This document shows positions 1 through 19,705 of a stretch of DNA of 64,000 bases, one piece after another. The notes beneath the pieces were generated by a model, which was not told the DNA's origin, did not search any database, and saw nothing but the letters and a program-made list of their open reading frames with translations. Numbering within the stretch: the stretch's first letter is position 1; each line of letters opens with the position of its first letter. Made by a program: the position numbers and the translations under genes. The stretch is from Escherichia coli 042 (GTDB lineage: Bacteria > Pseudomonadota > Gammaproteobacteria > Enterobacterales > Enterobacteriaceae), in assembly GCF_000027125.1 (NCBI RefSeq), contig NC_017626.1. One strand, given 5' to 3'.

Positions 1-126
1 GTTGCCCAGGGCAATGTCCTGCCTGTTCTGTACGGTGAAATGCGCGTGGGGTCACGTGTGGCATCTCAGGAGATCAGCACGGCAGATGAAGGGGATGGTG
101 GTCAGGTTGTGGTAATTGGGCGGTAA
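1..126 (+). CDS. Phage tail assembly protein, C-terminal fragment (lambda gpI-like by position; 5-prime end lies outside window)
   Basis: Open frame 1 runs from window start to TAA at 124-126, directly upstream of the J homolog as in the lambda tail gene order K-I-J. Assignment by position only; sequence not verified. Confidence 0.4.
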   Translation, partial: VAQGNVLPVLYGEMRVGSRVASQEISTADEGDGGQVVVIGR

Positions 127-198
127 TATTATTTACTCATGTTCTAACTGATTTAATATTTATATCGAACACTGATAATTATTCTATTGGTTAGCTAT

Positions 199-537
199 AT
201 GAACAAAACGATTTTATTCTGCACGATTATTGCCTTAACAGGATGTAAATCTTTGGATTACGTAAAATCCGGAAAACCTGTAATGGAAGGTAATTCATTA
301 AAAAATATTGATGAATTGTCAGGCTGCATATCCAGACAATGGGCTGGTAATGGAACACCTATAACATCCCTTCCTATTGAGAATGGGGTAAGCCTTTTAG
401 TTCCACAGGCTATGGGGGGATATGATGTTGTGCTTGATATCAAAAAAGCAGGAAATGGCAGTAGTTTTACTCTTTATGAACGTGTACCAGCATTAACGCC
501 AAAAATTTTTGCTGATAGTGTTAATGCATGTAAATAA
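199..537 (+). CDS. Predicted outer-membrane lipoprotein, prophage moron between tail assembly gene and J
   Basis: ORF track 187..537 begins at TTG; first ATG is at 199 giving MNKTILFCTIIALTGC.. with basic n-region, hydrophobic core and lipobox LTG-C; residue after Cys is Lys (not Asp), so outer-membrane sorting is predicted. Visibly AT-rich compared with flanking tail genes; own terminator downstream. Confidence 0.6.
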   Translation: MNKTILFCTIIALTGCKSLDYVKSGKPVMEGNSLKNIDELSGCISRQWAGNGTPITSLPIENGVSLLVPQAMGGYDVVLDIKKAGNGSSFTLYERVPALTPKIFADSVNACK

Positions 538-560
538 TAGTTAATCCTGCTGTAACTCAT

Positions 561-590
561 GAGCCGCCTTTTGGGCGGCTTTGTTGTTTA
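561..590 (+). terminator. Rho-independent terminator after lipoprotein moron
   Basis: Hairpin agccgcc-tttt-ggcggct followed by ttgttgttt. Confidence 0.5.
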
Positions 591-603
591 TGGAGTGTGA
601 GGA

Positions 604-3600
604 ATGGGTAAAGGAAGCAGTAAGGGGCATACCCCGCGCGAAGCGAAGGACAACCTGAAATCCACGCAATTACTGAGTGTGATCGATGCCATCAGCGAAG
701 GGCCGATTGAAGGTCCGGTGGATGGATTAAAAAGCGTGCTGCTGAACAGTACACCGGTGCTGGACAGTGAGGGGAATACCAACATCTCCGGTGTCACGGT
801 GGTGTTCCGGGCAGGTGAGCAGGAGCAGACACCGCCGGAGGGATTTGAATCCTCCGGTTCCGAGACGGTGCTGGGTACGGAAGTGAAATACGACACGCCG
901 ATCACCCGGACCATCACGTCTGCAAACATCGACCGTCTGCGCTTTACCTTCGGTGTGCAGGCTCTGGTGGAAACCACCTCAAAGGGGGACCGGAATCCGT
1001 CGGAAGTCCGCCTGCTGGTTCAGATACAACGTAACGGTGGCTGGGTGACGGAAAAAGACATCACCATTAAGGGCAAAACCACCTCGCAGTATCTGGCCTC
1101 GGTGGTGGTGGGTAACCTGCCGCCGCGCCCGTTTAATATCCGGATGCGCAGAATGACGCCGGACAGCACCACAGACCAGCTGCAGAACAAAACGCTCTGG
1201 TCGTCATACACCGAAATCATCGATGTGAAACAGTGCTACCCGAACACGGCACTGGTCGGCGTGCAGGTGGATTCGGAGCAGTTCGGCAGCCAGCAGGTGA
1301 GCCGTAATTATCATCTGCGCGGGCGTATTCTGCAGGTGCCGTCGAATTATAACCCGCAGACGCGGCAATACAGCGGTATCTGGGACGGAACGTTTAAACC
1401 GGCATACAGCAACAACATGGCCTGGTGTCTGTGGGATATGCTGACCCATCCGCGCTACGGCATGGGGAAACGTCTTGGTGCGGCGGATGTGGATAAATGG
1501 GCGCTGTATGTCATCGGCCAGAATTGCGACCAGTCGGTGCCGGATGGCTTTGGTGGCACGGAGCCGCGTATTACCTGTAATGCGTACCTGACCACGCAGC
1601 GCAAGGCGTGGGATGTGCTCAGTGATTTCTGCTCGGCGATGCGCTGTATGCCGGTATGGAACGGGCAGACGCTGACGTTTGTGCAGGACCGGCCATCGGA
1701 TAAGGTGTGGACCTATAACCGCAGTAATGTGGTGATGCCGGATGATGGCGCGCCGTTCCGCTACAGCTTCAGCGCCCTGAAAGACCGCCATAATGCCGTT
1801 GAGGTGAACTGGATTGACCCGAACAACGGCTGGGAGACGGCGACAGAGCTTGTGGAGGATACGCAGGCCATTGCCCGTTACGGTCGTAACGTCACGAAGA
1901 TGGATGCTTTTGGCTGTACCAGCCGGGGGCAGGCACACCGCGCCGGGCTGTGGCTGATTAAAACAGAACTGCTGGAAACGCAGACCGTGGACTTCAGCGT
2001 GGGCGCAGAAGGGCTTCGCCATGTGCCGGGCGATGTCATTGAAATCTGTGATGATGACTATGCCGGTATCAGCACCGGCGGGCGCGTGCTGGCGGTAAAC
2101 AGCCAGACCCGGACGCTGACGCTCGACCGTGAAATCACGCTGCCATCCTCCGGCACCACGCTGATAAGCCTGGTTGACGGACAGGGGAATCCGGTCAGCG
2201 TGGAGGTCCAGTCCGTCACCGACGGCGTGAAGGTGAAAGTGAGCCGTGTTCCTGACGGCGTTGCCGAATACAGCGTGTGGGGGCTGAAGCTGCCGACGCT
2301 GCGCCAGCGCCTGTTCCGCTGCGTGAGTATCCGTGAAAACGATGACGGCACGTATGCCATCACCGCCGTGCAGCATGTACCGGAAAAAGAAGCCATCGTG
2401 GATAACGGGGCGCACTTTGACGGCGACCAGAGCGGCACGGTGAATGGTGTCACGCCGCCAGCGGTGCAGCACCTGACTGCCGAAGTCACCGCAGACAGCG
2501 GGGAGTATCAGGTACTGGCCCGCTGGGACACGCCGAAGGTGGTGAAGGGGGTGAGCTTTATGCTTCGCCTGACCGTGGCAGCGGATGACGGCAGTGAGCG
2601 GCTGGTCAGCACGGCCAGGACGACGGAAACCACATACCGCTTCACGCAACTGGCGCTGGGAAACTACAGGCTGACAGTCCGGGCGGCAAATGCCTGGGGG
2701 CAGCAGGGCGATCCGGCATCGGTATCGTTCCGGATTGCCGCACCGGCAGCGCCGTCGCGGATTGAGCTGACGCCGGGCTATTTTCAGATAACCGCCACGC
2801 CGTATCTTGCCGTTTATGATCCGACGGTACAGTTTGAGTTCTGGTTCTCAGAAAAGCGGATTGCGGATATCAGGCAGGTTGAAACCGCAGCCCGCTATCT
2901 TGGCTCGGCGCTGTACTGGATAGCTGCCAGTATCAATATCAAGCCGGGCCATGATTATTATTTTTATATCCGCAGTGTGAATACTGTTGGCAAATCGGCA
3001 TTCGTGGAGGCTGTCGGTCGGGCGAGCGATGATGCGGAAGGTTACCTGGATTTTTTCAAAGGAGAAATCGGGAAAACACATCTGGCCCAGGAGCTGTGGA
3101 CGCAGATTGATAACGGTCAGCTTGCGCCGGACCTGGCTGAAATCAGGACGTCCATTACGAATGTCAGCAATGAAATCACGCAGACCGTCAATAAAAAACT
3201 GGAAAATCAGAGTGCGGCAATCCAGCAGATACAGAAAGTTCAGGTTGATACAAATAATAACCTGAACAGCATGTGGGCCGTGAAACTGCAGCAGATGCAG
3301 GACGGACGCCTTTATATTGCGGGTATCGGTGCCGGTATTGAGAATACGCCAGCAGGAATGCAGAGTCAGGTGCTGCTGGCGGCAGACAGGATTGCGATGA
3401 TTAATCCTGCGAATGGCAACACAAAGCCGATGTTTGTTGGTCAGGGCGATCAGATATTTATGAATGAAGTGTTCCTGAAATATCTGACGGCTCCCACCAT
3501 TACCAGCGGCGGTAATCCTCCGGCATTTTCCCTGACACCGGACGGGCGGCTGACGGCGAAAAATGCCGATATCAGCGGTAACGTGAATGCGAACTCCGGG

Positions 3601-4083
3601 ACGCTCAACAACGTCACGATTAACGAGAACTGTCGGGTTCTGGGAAAATTGTCCGCGAACCAGATTGAAGGCGATCTCGTTAAAACAGTGGGCAAAGCTT
3701 TCCCCCGGGACTCCCGTGCACCGGAGCGGTGGCCATCAGGAACCATTACCGTCAGGGTTTATGACGATCAGCCGTTTGACCGGCAGATTGTTATTCCGGC
3801 GGTGGCATTCAGCGGCGCTAAACATGAGAAAGAGCATACTGATATTTACTCCTCATGCCGTCTGATAGTGCGGAAAAACGGTGCTGAAATTTATAACCGT
3901 ACCGCGCTGGATAATACGCTGATTTACAGTGGTGTTATTGATATGCCTGCCGGTCACGGTCACATGACACTGGAGTTTTCGGTGTCAGCATGGCTGGTAA
4001 ATAACTGGTATCCCACAGCAAGTATCAGCGATTTGCTGGTTGTGGTGATGAAGAAAGCCACTGCAGGCATCACGATTAGCTGA
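604..4083 (+). CDS. J: Host specificity protein J (central tail fibre / tip attachment protein)
   Basis: 1159 aa ORF; N-terminus [38 protein letters not shown] matches my recollection of lambda J; size and position before lom fit. SD-like gagg upstream of ATG. Confidence 0.95.
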
Positions 4084-4100
4084 ATTTTATAACCCAGATA

Positions 4101-4128
4101 CGGGCGCCAGAAATGGCGCCTTTTTTAT
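4101..4128 (+). terminator. Rho-independent terminator after J
   Basis: ggcgcc-agaaat-ggcgcc hairpin followed by tttttt. Confidence 0.5.
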
Positions 4129-4150
4129 TGCAGAAAAGCGAGAGGTAATT

Positions 4151-4750
4151 ATGCGTAAATTATGTGCTGTTATTTTGTCCGCAGTAGTCTGGCAGGTCGC
4201 CGCTGCTACGCCAGCGAGTGCAGCAGAACATCAGTCCACGCTGAGCGCGGGGTATCTCCATGCCTCGACGAACGTTCCCGGTAGTGATGATCTGAACGGG
4301 ATTAACGTGAAATACCGTTATGAGTTTACGGACGCGCTGGGGCTGATTACGTCCTTCAGTTATGCCAATGCTGAGGATGAGCAAAAAACGCGCTACAGCG
4401 ATACCCGCTGGCATGAAGATTCCGTGCGTAACCGCTGGTTCAGCGTGATGGCGGGGCCGTCTGTACGCGTGAATGAATGGTTCAGCGCGTATGCGATGGT
4501 GGGTGTGGCTTACAGCCGTGTGTCGACTTTCTCCGGGGATTATCTCCGCGTAACTGACAACAAGGGGAAAACGCACGATGTGCTGACCGGAAGTGATGAC
4601 GGTCGCCACAGCAACACGTCTCTGGCGTGGGGGGCTGGCGTGCAGTTTAATCCGACCGAATCCGTGACCATTGACCTTGCTTATGAAGGTTCCGGTAGTG
4701 GCGACTGGCGAACGGATGCATTTATTGTTGGTATCGGATACCGTTTCTGA
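4151..4750 (+). CDS. lom: Lom/Ail/PagC-family outer membrane beta-barrel protein
   Basis: 199 aa, signal peptide ending ASA-AE, C-terminal GYRF beta-barrel signature, position immediately after J as in lambda. Confidence 0.9.
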   Translation: MRKLCAVILSAVVWQVAAATPASAAEHQSTLSAGYLHASTNVPGSDDLNGINVKYRYEFTDALGLITSFSYANAEDEQKTRYSDTRWHEDSVRNRWFSVMAGPSVRVNEWFSAYAMVGVAYSRVSTFSGDYLRVTDNKGKTHDVLTGSDDGRHSNTSLAWGAGVQFNPTESVTIDLAYEGSGSGDWRTDAFIVGIGYRF

Positions 4751-4853
4751 CAACAGACGCCGATTTATCTTCTGTAAATATTGTTATGATACGCAGGTTC
4801 ATCCACCTTATGGGGTGAACTGCGTTTGAGGAAACGTAAAGTTACACTGTCCT

Positions 4854-4888
4854 GAAGCCCGTGGCGTCACTGCTGCGGGCTTTTTTTA
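4854..4888 (+). terminator. Rho-independent terminator after lom
   Basis: aagcccg..cgggctt stem followed by ttttttt. Confidence 0.5.
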
Positions 4889-4901
4889 TTGGTGGAAAAG
4901 T

Positions 4902-7900
4902 ATGACAGTAAAAATTTCTGGCGTGCTTAAAGATGGCACAGGAAAACCAGTACAGAACTGCACCATTGTGCTGAAGGCCAGACGAACCAGCAGCACGGTG
5001 GTGGTGAACACGGTGGCCTCTGAAAATCCGGATGAAGCCGGACGTTACAGCATGGATGTTGAGCATGGTCAGTACAGCGTCACCCTGCTGGTTGAAGGTT
5101 TTCCGCCTTCACATGCCGGGACCATTACCGTCTATGAAGGTTCCAGATCAGGTACGCTGAATGATTTTCTCGGTGCCATGACGGAGGATGATGTCCGACC
5201 GGAGGCACTGCGCCGCTTTGAGCAGATGGTGGAAGAGGTGTCACGTAACGCCTCCGCGGTTGCACAGAATACGGCAGCCGCGAAAAAATCAGCCAGCGAT
5301 GCCAGTGCATCAGCCAGCGAGGCGGCAACTCATGCAACCGATGCTGCAGCCTCAGCACGTGCCGCCAGCACGTCAGCCGGACAGGCCGCGTCGTCGGCTC
5401 AGTCAGCGTCTTCCAGCGCAGGAACGGCATCGACAAAGACCCGTGAAGCAGCAAAAAGTGCTGCTGCTGCAGAGTCATCAAAAAGCGCGGCAGCTACCAG
5501 CGCCAGTGCCGCGAAAACGTCAGAAACGAATGCCGCAGCATCACAAAAATCGGCAGCCACTTCTGCATCCACAGCGACCACGAAGGCGTCAGAAGCTGCC
5601 ACCTCGGCACGGGGTGCGGCGGCCTCAAAAGAGGCAGCGAAATCTTCAGAAACGAATGCATCATCAAGTGCCAGTAGTGCAGCTTCCTCGGCAACGGCGG
5701 CAGGAAATTCCGCGAAGGCGGCAAAAACGTCCGAGACGAACGCTAAGTCTTCTGAAACAGCAGCGGGACAGAGCGCCTCAGCTGCGGCAGGTTCAAAAAC
5801 AGCGGCTGCATTATCTGCCAGTGCCGCGTCAACAAGTGCCGGGCAGGCCTCAGCCAGTGCCACCGCCGCCGGAAAATCGGCAGAAAGCGCCGCATCATCC
5901 GCTTCAACAGCCACAACGAAGGCTGGCAAAGCCACTGAGCAAGCCACTGCAGCAGCGAGGTCTGCTTCTGCAGCAAAAACCTCTGAAACAAATGCAAAGA
6001 CTTCAGCAGACAATGCTGCTTCCTCTAAGGCGGCAGCCGCATCGTCAGCCAGTTCAGCGGCGTCATCGGCATCATCTGCGTCTGCTTCAAAAGATGAGGC
6101 GACCAGACAAGCGTCAGCAGCGAAAGGTAGTGCCACGACAGCAACAACGAAAGCATCAGAGGCGGCAGGCAGTGCGACGGCTGCATCTCAGAGCAAAGTT
6201 GCTGCTGAATCCGCGGCAACGCGCGCCGAGACAGCAGCAAAACGGGCAGAGGATATTGCATCCGCCGTGGCGCTGGAGGATGCGAGCACGACGAAAAAGG
6301 GGATAGTACAGCTCAGCAGTGCAACAAACAGCACCAGTGAAAAGCTGGCGGCAACGCCAAAGGCAGTTAAAACTGTTAAAGATAGTTCAGTTCAAAAAAC
6401 TGGCGACACAATGGGAGGGCAGTTAAAAATCAGCACGATAAATGCTCTTCGAATATTCAACCAAGCCTTTGGCCTTATTTTTAGGCGTTCCGAAGATCAT
6501 CTTCATCTTATTCCGACTAATGAAGGGGAGGGGGAAAATGGAGACATCGGTTCATTAAGACCATTCTCTATAAACTTAAGATCAGGGTTGGTGTCCATCG
6601 GTAATGGACTAAAAGTTGGTGGTAGTGTTACTGGTAATTTGACCGGAAACGCAGATACTGCGACCAAGATCAAGACAGCACGTAAGATTGGGGGCGTGGC
6701 ATTTGATGGATCGGCAGATATCAACTTGCCTGGAGTCAACGCTACCGGTAATCAAAACACTACAGGTAATGCTGCGACCGCCACGAAACTTCAGGCAGCC
6801 AGAACGATTAACGGTGTGTCATTTGATGGTAGTGCAAATATCACATTGACCCCTTCAAATATTGGGGCATTGGCATTAACTGGAGGGACTCTTTCAGGTG
6901 GTTTAACTGCTGCTGGTGAGGTTATTTCAAGGTCAGCAAATGGTCTGCGTATTGCCTATGGCAACTATGGATTCTTTATCCGAAATGATGGATCAAACAC
7001 ATATTTTATGTTGACAGATTCGGGTAACAGTCTTGGTACGCACAATAGCTTAAGGCCGTTTATAATTAGTAACCATACTGGCAATGTTACAATTGCAACT
7101 AAATTAAACGCGAGTGGTGGTATCACTGGATCTTTATCGGGTAATGCAAGCACAGCAACCAAATTGCAAACTGCAAGGACAATTAACGGCGTAAAATTTG
7201 ACGGCTCGGCAAATATTGAAGCGTTTCCGCCAGGTGTTCCGCTGCCGTGGCCATCAGATACACCACCTGCAGGTTATGCAATCATGCAGGGGCAGACGTT
7301 TGATAAGGCAGCATATCCGAAACTGGCTATTGCCTATCCTTCAGGTGTTATTCCAGATATGCGCGGCTGGACAATCAAGGGCAAACCCGCCAGTGGCCGG
7401 GCCGTATTGTCTCAGGAACAGGACGGCATTAAATCGCACACCCACAGCGCCAGCGCATCCAGTACGGATTTGGGGACGAAAAACACATCGTCGTTTGATT
7501 ACGGAACCAAATCCACGAATAACACCGGGGCGCATACCCATAGTATTAGCGGGACTGCAAATAGTGCCGGTGCGCACCAACACAAGAGTTCCGGTGCATT
7601 TGGTGGCACGAACACGAGCATTTTCCCTAATGGTTATACCGCGATTTCAAATCTAAGCGCGGGGATTATGAGCACAACAAGCGGTAGTGGCCTGACTCGT
7701 AATGCAGGGAAGACATCATCAGATGGTGCTCATACCCACTCGCTGTCCGGCACTGCTGCAAGCGCAGGCGCACATGCACATACTGTCGGTATTGGTGCTC
7801 ATACGCACTCCGTTGCGATTGGCTCACATGGACACACCATCACCGTTAACGCTGCTGGTAACGCGGAAAACACCGTCAAAAACATCGCATTTAACTATAT

Positions 7901-7916
7901 TGTGAGGCTTGCATAA
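4902..7916 (+). CDS. stf: Side tail fibre protein
   Basis: 1004 aa; N-terminus [22 protein letters not shown] and C-terminus ..[18 protein letters not shown] resemble lambda Stf from memory; long Ala/Ser/Thr-rich low-complexity shaft; three tandem ~38-aa repeats (TGNxxTATKxxTARxIxGVxFDGSAxI) at about 6600-7210; cluster of His-x-His motifs near the C-terminal tip. Confidence 0.92.
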
Positions 7917-8554: not shown

Positions 8555-9223
8555 CTATTTTTTCCCTGAAGCGGAAAACATTACTACAGTACCTTGAACC
8601 TTGGTTTTAACATTCTCGAAATGCTCTGAGAGTATATGTGTTAAGCCTTCTTCGGAATCTTTTGTGTTTGAAAAGATGCCTTTCTGATTGTAAATGCGCA
8701 TCAGTTTTTGACCGAAGCTATTGTGCACAACTCCATCGCCAAGAATTGTGGCTCCGTATAGAGTTCCATCGTCAGTTAAGGCCTGCGCCGCATTGCGTAT
8801 TACACAGCTTTTTGTAGATATATTTCCAGGCAGGCAGTGAAGAAGGTAAAACATGGAAATGGAATCAAATTGACCATGTAACGCCGCGGGATAAGGTTCA
8901 AAAACATCATGGCTAATTTTATGTTTAATTTTTGATTCCCCAGCCCTTGTAGATGCCGCGTTCAGGCTAGCTTCGTTCAAATCCATTAAAGATATCAGAC
9001 TACTCTCAGGTACGTGAGTAAGGTAAAACCCAGTTCCAACACCAATATCCAGATGGTTGTTACCTAAATGTTCCAGAAAGTGTGGAAGAAGGTGTTCCTT
9101 TGTAGGACATCCCCATGCAAGCCGATTTGATACTCCCAAAACCCACCAGTCATAAAGCTTTAGGGTAAGTGGTGTGTAAATTTTAGCCCCATCATCTGTG
9201 TTTTTTTTCATTAATTTCACCAT
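8555..9223 (-). CDS. Class I SAM-dependent methyltransferase (putative), prophage cargo gene
   Basis: 222 aa ORF. Motif I LDIGVGTG, acidic post-I ISLMDLN, motif II FDSISMFYLLHCLP, motif III LTDDGTLYGATIL in canonical order. Visibly AT-rich versus neighbours. Likely true start is the second Met (MKKNTDDG, about 9211) which has a GGTGA SD-like sequence upstream. Substrate unknown. Confidence 0.65.
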   Translation of the reverse strand: MVKLMKKNTDDGAKIYTPLTLKLYDWWVLGVSNRLAWGCPTKEHLLPHFLEHLGNNHLDIGVGTGFYLTHVPESSLISLMDLNEASLNAASTRAGESKIKHKISHDVFEPYPAALHGQFDSISMFYLLHCLPGNISTKSCVIRNAAQALTDDGTLYGATILGDGVVHNSFGQKLMRIYNQKGIFSNTKDSEEGLTHILSEHFENVKTKVQGTVVMFSASGKK

Positions 9224-9279: not shown

Positions 9280-9549
9280 ATGCTGCCGCAGCATAGCGAT
9301 ATTGAAATAGCCTGGTATGCTTCGATACAGCAGGAGCCGAATGGCTGGAAGACCGTCACCACACAGTTCTACATCCAGGAATTCAGTGAGTATATTGCGC
9401 CACTGCAGGATGCTGTAGATCTGGAAATCGCAACGGAGGAAGAAAGATCGTTGCTGGAGGCATGGAATAAATATCGGGTATTGTTGAATCGTGTTGATAC
9501 ATCAACTGCACCTGATATTGAGTGGCCTGCAAATCCTGTCAGGGAGTAA
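9280..9549 (+). CDS. Truncated or divergent tail fibre assembly protein homolog (tfa-prime, 89 aa)
   Basis: C-terminal 52 aa nearly identical to Tfa ([51 protein letters not shown]); N-terminus unrelated and short; good SD aagggg 5 nt before ATG. Could be a functional mini-chaperone or a remnant. Confidence 0.5.
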
Positions 9550-9600
9550 TCATTGGGATTATGCCGCAGACACGTCGTATGCAGGAACGTGCTGCGGTTA
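9390..9600 (+). repeat. Direct repeat copy B (tfa-prime 3-prime end plus downstream hairpin)
   Basis: Partner of 8340..8550; hairpin arms are degenerate in this copy. Confidence 0.8.
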
Positions 9601-10135
9601 GTTTGTGAGCTTTCGATAGTGGTTGTTATTTTTGCCCTTATTTGTTCCGGAGGCCATGGTTCAATGGTCCGTCTGCCCCCTGTGGTGATGTCAGCAAAAT
9701 CAGCCACTGCGCGAACCACAATAGCCCGGGAAGATGCTGAAGATCACCAGGTAAAGCTGTCAGCGCAGAAACTGGAAGAACTGCTCGCATCAATGGTTAA
9801 GGATGAGGTTGATCGCAATGATGGGATTTATTGACGTCAGCGAGAGCAGAAGGAAGAACTGAATAACCTGAATGATTTACGCTCAATCAGAGCGATGATG
9901 ATTGGCAGTAATTAGCGGTCAATTTCGGTTTTTTTGGCTGTGCGCTCCCCGCCCAGCATTGCGCGTCAATTAGCCCCAAAAAAACGAAAAAGTTACAATC
10001 AAGTAAAAAATTCCTTCTGCAAAACTAAAAAAGATTTCAATAAAATCAGACAGTTAAAAGCATAAAAAAAGGTACAAAAAAAACATCTCAAAGTCTTGTT
10101 TTTTGCTTCAAATACAATTGGTTATTGTGTTTTTT

Positions 10136-10263
10136 GAAACCTACCAGTCTGGTACATGGATATCGATACCACCGCCAATTATAAGCTGGGCGGTGCACAG
10201 CAACACGATAGCGTACGCCTCGATCCGTGGGTGTTTATGTTCTCAGCAGGATATCGTTTTTAA
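10136..10263 (+). pseudogene. ompW: 3-prime fragment of ompW (last ~42 codons) at the prophage-chromosome junction
   Basis: In-frame translation ..WYMDIDTTANYKLGGAQQHDSVRLDPWVFMFSAGYRF-stop matches the OmpW C-terminus as recalled; an in-frame TGA lies just upstream (about 10133) and sequence 5-prime of it is phage-like and AT-rich; yciE follows as in K-12. Confidence 0.8.
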
Positions 10264-14031: not shown

Positions 14032-15393
14032 TTAATATGCGCGCAGCGTCTGGAAAACCGAGGCCAAAAGACGTGCGTCTTTGATGCCCGGTTGCGACTC
14101 TACAGCAGAATTAAAATCAAGTCCGGCGCAGCCGGTTTGTGCCGCTTCCACGCAGTTATCTGCGCCTAAGCCCCCCGCCAGCAGAACGTTGCCAAGCGAT
14201 TGACCGTTTAACAGTGACCAGTCGAAACGTTGCCCGCTTCCACCCTGGCCGTTGTCTAAAACATATTTATCAACGTGCTGAAGCTCGCGGGCGGGCAGGG
14301 TTTCACCGACGCTTAATGCTTTCCAGATGGCAATGTTTGCGGGCAGCGCGCCACGCAATGTGTCGATATATTGTTGATCTTCATTACCATGCAGTTGCAC
14401 TGCCGCAAGTGATAACACCTTAGCTTTGTCCACCACATCGGCAATATCGTGATTGCGGAACACGCCAACATACTGCAACGGTGCCGCAGCCATCACTTCC
14501 TGCGCCTGTTCAACGTTGACGCAACGCGGTGATGTCGCAACAAAAATCAACCCACCGTAAATCGCGCCCGCGTCATAAGCTGCTTTAGCATCTTGCCCAC
14601 GCGTCAGGCCACATACTTTATTCTCACCCAGCAACACCCGGCGCACGGCGGCGTTCAAATCGTCATGGGCCATCAACGCCGAACCAATCAGAAAACCGTT
14701 AGCGAAGTGGCTTAACTCGCGCACCTGAGCGTAAGTATTGATGCCGGATTCGCTGATTACCGTCACGTTGTGCCCCAGTTTCGGCGCAAGCTCGCGGGTA
14801 CGGTTGAGATCAATCGACAAATCACGCAGATCGCGGTTGTTGATGCCAACGACCTTTGCCCCCAATGCAATGGCACGCTCCAGTTCCTCTTCATTACTGA
14901 CTTCGGTCAGCACACCCATCTCCAGACTGTGGGCGACGGCAGCAAGCTGGCGATATTGTTCGTCATCCAGTACTGAAAGCATTAATAAGCAGGCATCGGC
15001 CTGGTAATAGCGCGCCAGATAGATCTGGTAAGGATCGATAATGAAGTCTTTACATAAAATCGGCTGCGGGGCGATTTGGCTGACGATGGGGAGGAAATCA
15101 AAGCTCCCCTGAAAATATTTCTCATCAGTCAGCACCGAAATTGCCGAAGCGTAATGTTTATAAATGGCGGCAATGCGTGCCGGATCGAAATCATCACGGA
15201 TCACGCCTTTTGACGGCGACGCTTTTTTGCACTCCAGAATAAACGACGTGCGTGCACCCTGAAGTGCATCATAAAAATGTCGCGTGCTCGGCTGAACCTC
15301 ATTCTGAAAACTGGCCAGCGGTTGCTGCTCTTTGCGGGTTTCTACCCAAATCGCCTTGTCTGCGACGATTTTCGCTAAAACGGTTTGCATCAT
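14032..15393 (-). CDS. trpC: Bifunctional indole-3-glycerol phosphate synthase / phosphoribosylanthranilate isomerase
   Basis: 453 aa; operon position and recognised sequence. Confidence 0.96.
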
Positions 15394-16989
15394 TTACCCT
15401 CGTGCCGCCAGTGCGGTGACTCTGTCGTAAGCGGAACCACTGCGCAGTACCTCAAGAACGGTTTGCGCATTGGCTTGCAGATCTTCATGGCCATGCAGGC
15501 GCATTAACATGGCGACATTCGCCGCGACGGCTGCTTCATGGGCGGCGTCGCCTTTACCTTGTAACAAGCGTGTTAAAATGTCACGGTTTTCTTCCGGTGT
15601 TCCGCCTGCCAGTTGCTCCTGGTGGTAGGGTGTCAGGCCAAAATCTTCTGCAGTTAGCTGATAGCTCTTAATTTCACCGTCATGCAGTTCGGCAACGATT
15701 GTCGGCGCGTGTAATGAAACTTCATCCATCCCGCCGCTGTGCACTACCGCAGCGCGTTGATACCCCAGCACGCGCAAGGTTTCGGCAATCGGCAGCACCA
15801 GTTCCGGACTATAAACACCAATTAGCGCCAGCGGCGGATGCGCCGGGTTAATCAATGGCCCCAGCACATTGAACAGGGTGCGGGTTTTCAGTTGCTGGCG
15901 AACCGGCATCGCGTGGCGGAATCCGGTGTGATATTTCGGCGCAAAGAGGAAACAGACGCCTAACTCATCCAGCGCCTGGCGCGATTTATCGGCGTTCATA
16001 TCAAGATTAATACCGAACGCCGCCAGCAGATCCGACGAGCCGGATTTACTGGAGACGCTACGGTTGCCGTGTTTCGCCACTTTCAGCCCACAGGCCGCGG
16101 CGACAAAAGCACTGGCGGTAGAAATATTGATACTGTTGCTGCCGTCACCACCGGTACCGACGATATCGGCAAACAGATAATCCGGGCGCGGGAACGGCGC
16201 GGCGTTTTCCAGTAGCGCGGTTGCTGCTCCGGCGATTTCGTTTGGGTGCTCGCCGCGAATTTTCATGCTTACCAGAGCCGCCGCGAGCTGTTCTGGCTTC
16301 AGCTCGCCATGCACCACTGCTGAAAACAGCTGGTGGCTTTCTTGCTGGCTAAGCGTCTGCGCCTGATACAGTTTTTCCAGAATCGGTTGCAGCGTGTTAG
16401 TCGGTTCCAGTTTCTGCTGCGCCCAGGCCAATGTTTGTTCCAGCAGGCGAGCGCCCTGGGTAGTAAGAATGGATTCCGGATGGAACTGGAATCCACAAAC
16501 GCGATCTGCATCGTGACGCACTGCCATCACCATGCCATTAAAATGGGCGTTGATGGTTAAACCGGCCGGAATGTTACTGCCAACCAGCGAGTGATAACGC
16601 GCCACTGGCAGCGGGTTTGTTAATCCGGCAAACATCGCCTGACCGTCGTGTTCAATGCTGGAGGCTTTACCGTGAAGAATTTCGCCCGCCTGACCGACAT
16701 ACCCCCCATAAGCTTCGACAATCGCCTGATGACCGAGGCAAATGCCAATAATAGCCAGCTTGCCGCGCAGGCGGGTGAGGAGTTCCGGCATACAACCGGC
16801 TTCGCTTGGCACTCCGGGGCCAGGAGAAAGCATCAGCACCGGATTGCTCATCGTCGCCAGGCGTTCAATTAAAGTCTGCGCCGGAATATGGTTGCGGTAA
16901 ATCACCACGTTATGACCATTGCTGCGCAACTGATCTGCCAGGTTGTAAGTAAAAGAGTCGATATTATCGAGCAGCAGAATGTCAGCCAT
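15394..16989 (-). CDS. trpD: Anthranilate synthase component II / anthranilate phosphoribosyltransferase
   Basis: 531 aa; glutamine amidotransferase N-domain plus PRTase domain. Confidence 0.96.
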
Positions 16990-18551
16990 CAGAAAGTCTC
17001 CTGTGCATGATGCGCGGTGGCAATAGCGCGCAGTACAGCGCGGGCTTTATTACGGGTTTCGTCGGCTTCCGACTGCGGAACAGAATCAAGTACCACGCCA
17101 GCACCGGCTTGCACGGTGGCGATACCGTTTTCCACCAGCGCCGAGCGGATCACAATGCAGGTGTCGAGATCGCCATGCGCGGTGAAATAACCTACCGCGC
17201 CGCCGTAGCTGCCGCGGCGACGACCTTCCGCCTCGGCAATTAACTGCATGGCGCGCACTTTCGGCGCACCGCTTAACGTGCCCATATTCATACAGGCGCG
17301 GTAAGCGTGCAGGGCGTCGAGATCGTGGCGCAGCTCACCGACCACGCGGGAGACCAGGTGCATCACATAAGAATAACGGTCAACTTTGGTGAGATCGGCG
17401 ACGTAGCGACTACCGGGAGTGCAAATACGCGCCAGGTCATTACGGGCGAGATCCACCAGCATCAGATGTTCAGAAAGCTCTTTATGATCGGTACGCATTT
17501 CCAGTTCGATGCGGCTGTCGAGGTCTCTGTCCAGCGAACCATCGGCACGACGACCGCGTGGACGTGTTCCGGCAATCGGGTAGATCTCAATCTGGCGGCT
17601 GGTGGCGTCATACTTGAGCGAGCTCTCCGGCGACGCGCCAAACAGGGTGAAATCATTATCCTGCATAAAAAACATATACGGGCTGGGATTACTCTTTTTC
17701 AGCACGTAATAGGCCGCCAGCGGTGACGGGCAGGGCAGAGAGAAACGGCGAGATGGCACCACCTGGAAAATTTCTCCGGCGCGAATCGCTTTTTGCAACA
17801 AACGCACTACGCCACCGAACTCTTCATCGCTCTGGTTACATTCACAATGCATATGCGGCACGGAAACCACCGGCAGCGGTGGCGCGGTTTCGGTCAGCTG
17901 CTGGCGAAGATCGTTCAGGCGAGCAGTGAGACGTTGTTTTTCTTCTTCATTCGGAGCAAAAAGACTGGCCTGAATGCGGGTGCTTTTTTTCTGATGGTCA
18001 ATCACCATCAGCGTTTCAGCGAGATAAAAACAGAAATCAGGACAGTTATTTTCCGCTGCCAGTTGTGGTAAATCTTCAAATCCCGCCACAAGGTCATAAG
18101 AGAACAGGCCGCCGAAGAACATGGCTTCTCGTTCTTCCTTCGGTACATTCAACAGATTCTGCAATAAGCGGAAAGCGTCAAAAACCGAAAGGGAGCATAA
18201 GCGGGCGTCTTCATCCAGCAGTGGACTGACAGGGGGGAAGCGCAGCACACGGCAGTTTGGTGATTGTTCACTTTCCACACCCGCAGGCAGGGCGTTATCC
18301 AGTAGTGCCAGCAGGGCTTCGCCATTGCCGGAAAGTGCCTGAATTGTGACAGTGTCACCTAATGCTGTAATGCGCAGCGCACTGTCTATCAGCAGCAGAC
18401 TTTTTAAATCATCTTTGCTGTCGATATCTGCGGATTCCAGCAGCAGCGTTGCTGGACGATGCCCACACAACTGGTGAAAAAGCGCAGTCGGGTTGTCGCG
18501 ATAAGCGCCTTCGCAGGTTAGCAGTTCGAGAGTCGGTTTTTGTGTTTGCAT
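16989..18551 (-). CDS. trpE: Anthranilate synthase component I
   Basis: 520 aa; [30 protein letters not shown] recognised. Confidence 0.97.
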
Positions 18552-18572
18552 TGTTATTCTCTAATTTTGTTC

Positions 18573-18600
18573 AAAAAAAGCCCGCTCATTAGGCGGGCTG
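18573..18600 (-). terminator. trp attenuator (leader terminator, 3:4 hairpin)
   Basis: Minus-strand cagcccgcctaatgagcgggc followed by a T-run, between trpL and trpE. Confidence 0.9.
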
Positions 18601-18641
18601 GGTATCTGATTGCTTTACGCATGGTGAATACACTGCCCGTT

Positions 18642-18686
18642 TCAGGAAGTGCGCCACCAACCTTTCAGTACGAAAATTGCTTTCAT
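18642..18686 (-). CDS. trpL: trp leader peptide [14 protein letters not shown] with tandem Trp codons
   Basis: Translated codon by codon from the minus strand; 14 aa plus TGA stop. Confidence 0.95.
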
Positions 18687-18713
18687 TGTCGATACCCTTT
18701 TTACGTGAACTTG

Positions 18714-18748
18714 CGTACTAGTTAACTAGTTCGATGATTAATTGTCAA
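18714..18748 (-). promoter_or_regulatory. trp promoter with TrpR operator
   Basis: Exact operator palindrome cgaactagttaactagtacg on the minus strand at 18714-18733; -35 TTGACA at 18743-18748. Confidence 0.9.
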
Positions 18749-18823
18749 CAGCTCATTTCAGAATATTTGCCAGAACCGTTATGATGTCGGCGCAAAAAAC
18801 ATTATCCAGAACGGGAGTGCGCC

Positions 18824-19705
18824 TTGAGCGACACGAATTACGCAGTGATTTACGACCTGCACAGCCATACCACAGCTTCCGATGGCTGCCTGACGCCAGA
18901 AGCATTGGTGCACCGTGCAGTCGAGATGCGCGTCGGCACCCTGGCGATCACCGACCATGACACCACAGCTGCAATCGCGCCAGCAAGAGAGGAAATTTCA
19001 CGTTCGGGACTGGCGCTGAATCTTATACCCGGCGTGGAAATTTCCACGGTCTGGGAAAATCATGAAATTCATATTGTCGGGCTGAATATTGATATTACTC
19101 ATCCGCTAATGTGTGAGTTCCTCGCGCAGCAGACAGAACGGCGCAATCAGCGGGCGCAGCTGATTGCCGAAAGACTTGAAAAAGCGCAGATACCAGGTGC
19201 GCTGGAAGGCGCGCAACGACTGGCGCAGGGCGGTGCGGTGACGCGCGGTCATTTTGCTCGTTTCCTTGTGGAGTGCGGCAAAGCCAGTTCAATGGCGGAT
19301 GTCTTTAAAAAATATCTGGCGCGCGGGAAAACCGGATACGTTCCGCCACAGTGGTGTACAATAGAACAAGCTATTGATGTCATTCATCATTCTGGCGGTA
19401 AGGCGGTGCTAGCTCATCCTGGGCGGTACAATCTTAGTGCTAAATGGCTGAAAAGATTGGTTGCGCATTTTGCTGAACACCACGGCGACGCGATGGAAGT
19501 CGCGCAGTGCCAGCAATCGCCCAATGAACGCACCCAGCTGGCGACACTTGCGCGTCAGCATCATTTATGGGCATCACAAGGATCTGATTTTCATCAGCCG
19601 TGCCCGTGGATTGAACTGGGTCGTAAACTCTGGCTGCCTGCAGGCGTTGAAGGCGTCTGGCAGCTATGGGAACAGCCGCAGAACACCACAGAGAGGGAAT
19701 TATGA
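18824..19705 (+). CDS. trpH: PHP-domain 5-prime to 3-prime exoribonuclease (TrpH/YciV, RNase AM)
   Basis: 293 aa; PHP motif DLHSHT; K-12 synteny. Confidence 0.93.
   Translation: MSDTNYAVIYDLHSHTTASDGCLTPEALVHRAVEMRVGTLAITDHDTTAAIAPAREEISRSGLALNLIPGVEISTVWENHEIHIVGLNIDITHPLMCEFLAQQTERRNQRAQLIAERLEKAQIPGALEGAQRLAQGGAVTRGHFARFLVECGKASSMADVFKKYLARGKTGYVPPQWCTIEQAIDVIHHSGGKAVLAHPGRYNLSAKWLKRLVAHFAEHHGDAMEVAQCQQSPNERTQLATLARQHHLWASQGSDFHQPCPWIELGRKLWLPAGVEGVWQLWEQPQNTTEREL

Follow-up and report, generated by a model that had tools for sequence, protein, structure and literature searches.

At the start of the DNA analyzed here, a lambda-like prophage carries an additional lipoprotein gene between the tail genes I and J. 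The whole stretch, referred to as the window, comprises 64,000 nt from Escherichia coli 042 (NC_017626.1, assembly GCF_000027125.1), and coordinates are window positions unless another sequence is named. The segment from 127 to approximately 555 is a self-contained, compositionally foreign cassette, i.e. a moron in the sense of Hendrix, that recombined into the gap between I and J. The encoded protein is a moron-encoded phage lipoprotein of an already catalogued family (PHROG 914), and it lies outside the families of the exclusion lipoproteins Cor, Llp and Lpp010. Regarding its function we tentatively favor, by analogy with such proteins, a prophage-expressed outer membrane lipoprotein that would act in the envelope against incoming phages without being matched to the receptor of the neighboring J, a proposal we regard as quite possible but short of probable. 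The region is organized as follows:

1..126, + strand: 3’ end of the tail assembly gene I with its TAA stop codon at 124-126 (RefSeq annotation; identical region in strain CB7453)
127..198, + strand: AT-rich 5’ part (leader) of the cassette, lacking in mEp460 and lambda, GC content 31%
199..537, + strand: coding sequence of the 112-aa prolipoprotein of the PHROG 914 / phiKO2 gp19 family, start codon ATG at 199, stop codon at 535-537; signal peptide (aa 1-15) at nt 199-243, lipobox LTGC at nt 235-246, Cys16 (predicted acylation) at nt 244-246, Cys43 at nt 325-327, Cys111 at nt 529-531
561..591, + strand: intrinsic-terminator-like hairpin GAGCCGCC-TTTT-GGGCGGCT followed by a T-rich tail, directly before the ribosome-binding site of J
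604..4083, + strand: tail tip / host specificity gene J (1159 aa), the downstream neighbor, outside the cassette

The distance between I and J amounts to 477 bp in the window versus 60 bp in lambda (I 14773-15444, J 15505-18903), where no gene is located between the two, as a first-pass annotation of the sequence had stated. Alignment with mEp460 revealed one clean extra block at approximately 127-555, corresponding to a net insertion of about 417 bp. The same annotation had described an AT-rich insert of about 480 bp; the AT-richness stands, but the size has to be corrected, as 477 bp is the length of the entire gap. It had further suggested that the spacing of I and J be surveyed in related prophages: the insert is missing from more than 100 lambda-like phages which align to both flanks with about 96% identity and whose span is shorter by about 417 bp. 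The window gene I itself is about 96% identical to gene I of lambda-like phages up to the last 2-3 codons. Across positions 101-600 the GC content is 31-41% in comparison to 54-60% in J. For the lipoprotein ORF (open reading frame) alone it is 36.3%, and 23.9% at third codon positions, with flanks of 57-58%. The same low-GC bias was found in 12 other phage copies, and in every phage context the gene (36-49%) is poorer in GC than its flanks (44-58%). The locus thus combines three of the features by which Hendrix and Juhala recognized morons, namely an extra gene between otherwise adjacent genes, a deviant composition and a trailing terminator-like hairpin. At the borders we noticed a perfect 10-bp inverted repeat, TATTATTTAC / GTAAATAATA, located at 127-136 (the exact left edge of the insert) and 530-539 (over the ORF stop), as well as an 8-bp direct match, TTGGGCGG, at 116-123 (end of I) and 571-578 (3’ hairpin arm). 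We did not retain these repeats as an insertion signature, since by estimate they are within chance for AT-rich DNA. An Rfam search of positions 1-5000 returned GcvB alone, below threshold (E = 0.41).

In RefSeq the ORF is listed as hypothetical protein WP_001332187.1, while the copy of the extraintestinal pathogenic E. coli (ExPEC) strain S88 is named “Lipoprotein” in UniProt (B7ML65). The translation reads MNKTILFCTIIALTGC followed by KSLDY...NACK, and its N-terminus MNK-TILFCTIIA-LTGC shows the signature of a lipoprotein with a basic n-region, a hydrophobic core, the lipobox L13-T14-G15-C16 and Lys at position +2. This lipobox corresponds to the pattern [LVI][ASTVI][GAS]C (PMC11893012). The mature part contains two Cys residues, C43 and C111. 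The 112-aa ORF with LTGC lipobox, +2 Lys and two further Cys that had been noted in the first pass was hence confirmed, and C16, C43 and C111 are invariant in 43 diverse family members, with G63 nearly invariant. Asp at position +2 occurs in no family member examined, which predicts sorting to the outer membrane by Lol. The protein matches PHROG 914 over its full length (E = 7.3e-33; residues 1-112 against profile positions 1-118 of 118), a family whose function is unassigned in PHROG and the sole PHROG that it matched.

Family members are approximately 110-115 aa long, and frame, length, lipobox and both cysteines are kept down to about 25% identity. In enterobacterial members the motifs CKSLD, MGGYDVVLD and LYER are strongly conserved. 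The pairwise ratio of nonsynonymous to synonymous substitution rates (dN/dS) ranged from 0.08 to 0.6 for pairs in which dS was not fully saturated. Conservation as a coding sequence among relatives, on which the first-pass reading had depended, is therefore given, and judged by its sequence the ORF is a real, selected coding gene and not a chance reading frame.

An AlphaFold2 model based on the 43-sequence alignment was obtained with a predicted local distance difference test score of 92.3 and a predicted template modeling score of 0.81. It comprises a signal helix, a short helix (19-24) and a beta-alpha-beta4-alpha domain of helix-grip/TBP-like type, with a mature domain of about 97 aa. In the model the folded domain starts approximately 3 residues after Cys16, leaving a short tether. 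More than 160 structural relatives were found in AFDB, all named “Lipoprotein” or uncharacterized; those from Citrobacter, Salmonella, Shimwellia, Serratia, Pseudomonas and Bordetella reached template modeling scores of 0.72-0.89. The fold search of AFDB50 retrieved only unnamed lipoproteins and that of BFVD only uncharacterized phage proteins. No Pfam family was matched at E ≤ 0.001 by the window protein or by any of the 43 aligned members. NCBIfam gave only a VirB7 match at the level of the signal peptide (E = 0.08), and a sequence profile search of the PDB gave only signal-peptide or chance matches. We rejected an identity as Bor/Iss, TraT, MliC/PliC, spanin or VirB7, for which there was no Pfam or NCBIfam support; the gene is also located outside the lysis cassette, and the protein lacks a C-terminal transmembrane segment. 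Matches to giant proteins of 800-3700 aa, each with several matching stretches, were treated as spurious; they came from repetitive adhesin-like proteins via a repeated “..SYQWQ.NG..I.GAT” motif.

We then compared the protein to known lipoproteins and morons of tailed phages. Full-length homology was found to phiKO2 gp19 and the other members of PHROG 914 (Fraca VUF53278.1, LMessi CDS0039, OS31 p54 and S88 B7ML65), which share the length, the lipobox, the two invariant Cys, the location in the tail-tip block, the low GC content and the trailing terminator. The E. coli gene differs in being located between I and J and not between K and I. Cor of phi80, N15, HK022 and T1 (PHROG 1119) resembles the window protein as a small, prophage-encoded protein of the tail region with an outer-membrane sorting signal and a disulfide (predicted in our case), and the exclusion role considered below would be comparable in kind. 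It differs in its length of about 77 aa, in the position of its gene downstream of J near the receptor-binding end and in its occurrence with FhuA-using phages. No homology between the two was found: the window protein leads to PHROG 914 only, the Cor protein of Fraca to PHROG 1119 only, and no Cor was among the BFVD matches.

T5 Llp, a periplasmic lipoprotein of the outer membrane whose structure with FhuA is available (PDB 8A60), binds the periplasmic face of its receptor, and its Cys11-Cys58 disulfide constrains the termini (PMC9586334). The short tether and compact disulfide domain predicted for the window protein would allow the same docking. In the PDB profile search, however, Llp (8a60_B) was aligned along the signal peptide alone (E = 1.4). 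Lpp010 and Lpp021 of the mEpimmI phages exclude phages using LamB (including lambda) or OmpA when expressed alone (PMC11893012). Their genes, too, are lipoprotein genes in the structural gene cluster, but they encode proteins of 82 aa (PHROG 12984) and are located on the opposite strand immediately 3’ of J. Using hhalign, Lpp010 of mEp010 and the PHROG 914 family could be aligned over 16 signal-peptide columns only. Neither the PDB nor the BFVD search returned a fold match to Cor, Llp or Lpp010. The kinship with such exclusion lipoproteins that the first pass had considered thus dissolved on comparison of sequence and structure, leaving no likeness in either beyond the signal peptide.

The lambda morons lom and bor as well as HK97 gene 15 resemble the cassette as extra AT-rich, independently terminated genes in or beside the late operon; they are expressed from the prophage, as is proposed for the cassette. 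There is no homology, however: Lom is a beta-barrel, Bor is an Iss-like lipoprotein of the lysis region and gp15 is an inner-membrane protein. HK97 gene 15 is reported to lie within the tail genes and to exclude phages at the step of DNA entry, a finding attributed to Cumby et al. in 2012.

A lipoprotein that masks the receptor of its own phage would be expected to co-vary with the receptor-binding C-terminus of J, as Llp does with pb5; likewise cor and Lpp010 are linked to the 3’ end of J. We therefore examined 16 E. coli loci in which a full-length J follows a lipoprotein gene of 99-100% identity (one of the copies is disrupted). Over its first 800 aa, J differs little among the 16 loci (96-99% identity). 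According to the last 250 aa, at least four C-terminal types can be distinguished:

Window type: 90-100% identical to the window J, 9 loci
Second type: 68% identical to the window J, 1 locus
Third type: about 55% identical to the window J, 4 loci
Fourth, unrelated type: 10% identical to the window J, 2 loci

For comparison, the LamB-binding C-terminus of lambda J is 56% identical to that of the window J, whose C-terminal 173 aa are identical to J of the VT1-Sakai and PPompW prophages. The lipoprotein gene adjoins the conserved 5’ portion of J and is separated by 3.3 kb from the receptor-binding segment; in most relatives it is found even upstream of I, whereas the genes of Cor, Llp and Lpp010 are placed next to the receptor-binding end. 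In addition, phage Fraca and the prophage loci L047 and L055 carry a family member together with a genuine cor downstream of J. The diversity of J types, the co-occurrence with cor and the position of the gene all speak against a mask that fits the receptor of the neighboring J. The first-pass proposal that placement immediately 5’ of J suggests receptor masking in the manner of Cor or Llp was consequently not upheld. Exclusion in some other form remains plausible, as none of the three results bars it.

Of 5426 complete E. coli genomes, 339 (about 6%) contain a 521-bp segment with the gene; it was counted at 351 places and is essentially full length at 330 of these. Carriers include ExPEC S88 and many human and poultry isolates. 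In a representative search we collected 59 relatives across the Proteobacteria. Homologues of about 110 aa were recovered from Escherichia, Klebsiella, Enterobacter, Kluyvera, Jejubacter, Shimwellia, Serratia and Hafnia, and more distant ones from several further genera, among them Pseudomonas, Bordetella and Pandoraea. Between the E. coli protein and members from other species, identity is only 30-56%. In the phage collection no match was obtained with the insert by megablast; using tblastn the E. coli protein detected only Fraca and LMessi, the Fraca protein detected phiKO2 and OS31, and the Klebsiella protein detected none. The Fraca homologue belongs to PHROG 914 and is 49% identical to phiKO2 gp19. 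The latter is annotated as “putative moron gene product” and is followed by an annotated “putative terminator”; the moron label reportedly stems from Casjens et al. in 2004.

Viral contigs were scanned with an alignment of the enterobacterial subset. In all 27 E. coli IMG/VR loci with the flanking genes on the contig, the gene is located between I and J. The order K, lipoprotein gene, I, J was found in Klebsiella, Serratia fonticola and Hafnia, in the phages Fraca and LMessi (Hendrixvirinae), in the linear-plasmid prophage phiKO2 and in the metagenomic prophages L014-L017, L047, L048, L055 and L056. In this arrangement the gene starts 33-41 bp after K and ends 36-62 bp before I. In L049-L054 it precedes the tape-measure gene and lies about 3.5 kb 5’ of M, a place that resembles the site of HK97 gene 15, and in L064 it lies within the head module. 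Overall the vast majority of sampled copies are located inside phage structural operons, mainly between K and I or I and J. Disrupted copies occur in L045 and L046, and P0002 and P0018 are frameshifted variants.

The terminator scan identified a stem-loop at 561-581 with 9 pairs (6 of them G-C), followed by TGTTGTTTAT. Its stability corresponds to a z-score of -2.4 against shuffled sequences, 7 of 200 shuffles being as good. All 11 phage copies examined, which cover four operon positions, have a GC-rich hairpin with a T-run within approximately 10-30 nt 3’ of the stop codon, and each hairpin is followed by the ribosome-binding site of the next structural gene. This recurrence irrespective of position suggests that the gene forms a separate transcription unit which would be expressed from the prophage. 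The insert had been credited with a terminator of its own. Hairpin and T-run are indeed present, but they are not exclusive to it, since lambda and mEp460 contain a very similar hairpin inside their insert-free 60-bp gap (AAACCGCC-TGC-GGGCGGTTT in lambda, then a T-rich tail). The insert-free gap (lambda 15445-15504, i.e. L069 2046-2105; mEp460, L004 ~327-386) is positioned in the middle of the late operon, and its strong hairpin could represent a landing site for the moron or the scar of a lost one. In phiKO2, another annotated “putative terminator” is located between I and J (L070 8007-8029). On the 5’ side of the ORF, the leader (127-198) contains a weak promoter-like candidate, TTTACT-17 nt-AATATT (~132-160), and a weak Shine-Dalgarno sequence.

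Based on established lipoprotein biogenesis, the protein would be exported and acylated on Cys16 along the Sec, Lgt, LspA, Lnt and Lol route, and a DsbA-dependent disulfide between Cys43 and Cys111 would tie the C-terminal helix to helix 1. Judging from the terminator, transcription of the gene may take place in the repressed prophage and stop short of the late tail genes. The lipoprotein may then act on the envelope of the lysogen and interfere with incoming phage, at a step or through a partner that would be independent of the receptor-binding domain of J, and not as a mask of the receptor of the neighboring J. We propose exclusion because every tested small lipoprotein gene that was found from siphophage tail modules turned out to encode an exclusion factor, the precedents being Llp and Cor (PMC9586334) as well as Lpp021 and Lpp010 (PMC11893012). 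The uncoupling from the receptor is proposed because the identical protein occurs with at least four J C-terminal types and family members co-occur with cor. A more far-reaching version would see PHROG 914 as a widespread receptor-independent exclusion system of lambda-like siphophages which intercepts a conserved tail-tip component in the periplasm, e.g. the tape-measure protein or the NlpC/P60 protein K, whose gene usually adjoins the lipoprotein gene. In Gram-negative hosts the family would in that case correspond to Ltp, a lipoprotein of a Streptococcus phage, and interception of the tail tip would account for the association of the gene with the conserved K-I-J block and not with the receptor-binding domain. 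We regard this wider version as unlikely.

A number of observations weigh against an envelope function directed at incoming phages. Counted by its conserved 5’ end, lambda-type J is present at 8727 places in E. coli, only about 4% of which carry the insert. One relative, with a GC content of 62% and thus ameliorated, resides in the chromosome of Shimwellia blattae (CP001560; L009 6001-6339) between a yidB-like gene and ecotin in non-prophage surroundings (copCD, yebY, thiamine ABC transporter), which suggests a cellular role for the family in at least this one species. A tandem pair of diverged copies was found on a small Rep3/ParA/KfrA plasmid contig (L012 904-1272 and 1393-1740). Given these non-phage copies, a function unrelated to phage is quite possible. 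The fold is generic and points to no partner, and no family of PADLOC-DB was matched. On the + strand upstream of the ORF no sigma-70-like promoter was detected at the threshold of the consensus scan. With relaxed scoring the best candidate reached 8.5, no higher than control tail genes; neither the scan nor the scoring has discriminating power. Extended -10 candidates are good in two family loci, yet overall scores do not exceed those of the control tail genes. Where the gene follows K at 33-41 bp, co-transcription with the late genes is possible. Literature searches with the RefSeq accession and the PHROG number gave no match, and no experiment on any family member was found.

A rival explanation that accommodates the non-phage copies is lysogenic conversion, in which the lipoprotein would serve the fitness or virulence of the host (serum resistance, adhesion, stress tolerance or envelope homeostasis) like Bor or Lom. 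The AT-rich, terminator-bounded cassette resembles lom further downstream, the gene is found in ExPEC S88 and many human and poultry isolates, and the relatives in the Shimwellia chromosome and on the plasmid fit equally well. The conservation of motifs across the Enterobacteriaceae is more in keeping with a conserved partner in the host than with an arms race, and the fold is Flpp3/BamC-like. However, these structural similarities, at 6-12% identity, reflect a common fold, homology to Bor/Iss, TraT or Lom was not found (no Pfam match), and a placement in the structural operon, mostly between K and I or I and J, would be unexpected for a generic host-fitness gene. We consider conversion somewhat unlikely. 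The receptor mask, by which the lipoprotein would inactivate the outer-membrane receptor of its own J and block re-adsorption or superinfection as Llp and Cor do on FhuA, appears more doubtful still. It can draw on the profile of a small tail-module lipoprotein with outer-membrane sorting signal and predicted disulfide, on the precedents Llp, Cor, Lpp010 and Lpp021, which act in this way or give such a phenotype, and on the short modelled tether, which is compatible with binding to an outer-membrane protein from its periplasmic side, as in Llp. It is contradicted by a protein of 99-100% identity beside at least four J types, one of them at 10% identity, by the presence of cor in Fraca, L047 and L055, by gene positions remote from the receptor-binding end (5’ end of J, or upstream of I), by the absence of any match in sequence or fold to Cor, Llp and Lpp010, and by the chromosomal and plasmid copies.

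A late lytic function, silent in the lysogen, seems improbable to us. Here the gene would be co-transcribed with the tail genes and might, for instance, prevent progeny from getting caught on debris or vesicles, or support their release in another way. Its orientation is that of the tail genes, it is tightly packed among them in the K-I arrangement (33-41 bp after K, 36-62 bp before I), and no convincing promoter of its own was found. Q-type antitermination reads through hairpins and would pass the one in question. A terminator after every copy would however have no evident purpose if only antiterminated polymerase transcribed the gene; moreover 96% of related E. coli tails do without the gene, and it occurs in non-phage copies. 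Finally, the ORF might be a non-functional remnant or miscalled, for which the few disrupted copies (L045, L046, P0002, P0018) and the weak Shine-Dalgarno sequence of the E. coli copy could be cited. In view of the frame, length, lipobox and cysteines kept to about 25% identity, dN/dS below 1, full length at 330 of the 351 E. coli places and a confident fold prediction, we regard this as very improbable. The envelope function against incoming phage that is not matched to the J receptor is hence retained as our tentative proposal.

The prophage carrying the cassette is lambda-like and integrated at ompW; chromosomal genes (yciEFG, trpAB) follow from about 10.1 kb onward, and the region matches strain CB7453. 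Just downstream of J, lom forms another AT-rich, terminator-bounded cassette at 4151-4750. It is followed by the side tail fibre gene (4902-7916, 1004 aa), in which an Ala/Ser/Thr-rich low-complexity stretch at about aa 110-450 yields long spurious ORFs on both strands (e.g. 5188-6306 on the + strand and 5399-6136 on the - strand). The length of the fibre differs from that in the near-identical prophage of strain BEC1-S17-ESBL-09 (2250 bp, L001 16716-18965). At the right end of the prophage a class I S-adenosylmethionine-dependent methyltransferase gene is located on the opposite strand (8555-9223, - strand), which is probably another moron. It is surrounded by tail-fibre-assembly and DUF4376 remnants just before the truncated ompW attachment site, in a region that further takes in 9373-9915 and 10138-10263.

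When comparing the loci we further noticed that the K-I and I-J junctions collect unrelated lipoprotein genes. In LMessi a second lipoprotein gene (PHROG 2320, lipobox IVGC) is located directly upstream of the PHROG 914 gene (L003 7647-7994), and in Fraca the PHROG 2320 lipoprotein is annotated in N-terminally truncated form (L002 7725-7994). The Pseudomonas phages AH14a (p83) and AH14b (p21) also encode lipoproteins beside gene I (L067 3239-3661 and L068 2640-3062), which were set aside as they form an unrelated family of 140 aa. In AH14b, a satellite of AH14a, gene I and the lipoprotein gene are almost the only structural genes. In three of the metagenomic prophages a block of about 4.6 kb is located between K and the lipoprotein gene (L015 1420-5939, L016 2197-5939, L017 1711-6001), which still adjoins I. 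The block contains Arc-like repressor genes and Bro-N/KilA-N/ANT antirepressor-like genes (immI-like), and L017 additionally a gene with a SocA_Panacea domain. On the plasmid contig the tandem pair adjoins the replication gene and a PhdYeFM/YafO toxin-antitoxin pair.

Parts of this picture have been drawn before. Serratia phage OS31 p54, a family member, was already proposed as a Cor analogue by the same positional argument (PMC7556043), and the 140-aa lipoprotein beside gene I of AH14a/AH14b drew the same speculation (PMC4936722). New in the present analysis are the I-J insertion variant, the conserved terminator, the breadth of the family and the confident fold, and further the unrelatedness to Cor, Llp and Lpp010 and the uncoupling from the receptor-binding domain of J. 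As it stands, the gene is a well-defined but ordinary uncharacterized moron. The family deserves attention as it is present in many Enterobacterales prophages, has no Pfam family and uses a recurrent accessory site in the tail-tip operon. If it serves host fitness, it would join Bor and Lom as a conversion factor. If receptor-independent exclusion holds true, it would represent a new mechanism class for Gram-negative hosts. Prophage envelope proteins shape the range of phages on clinical E. coli and Klebsiella, which is of relevance to phage therapy and to competition between prophages.

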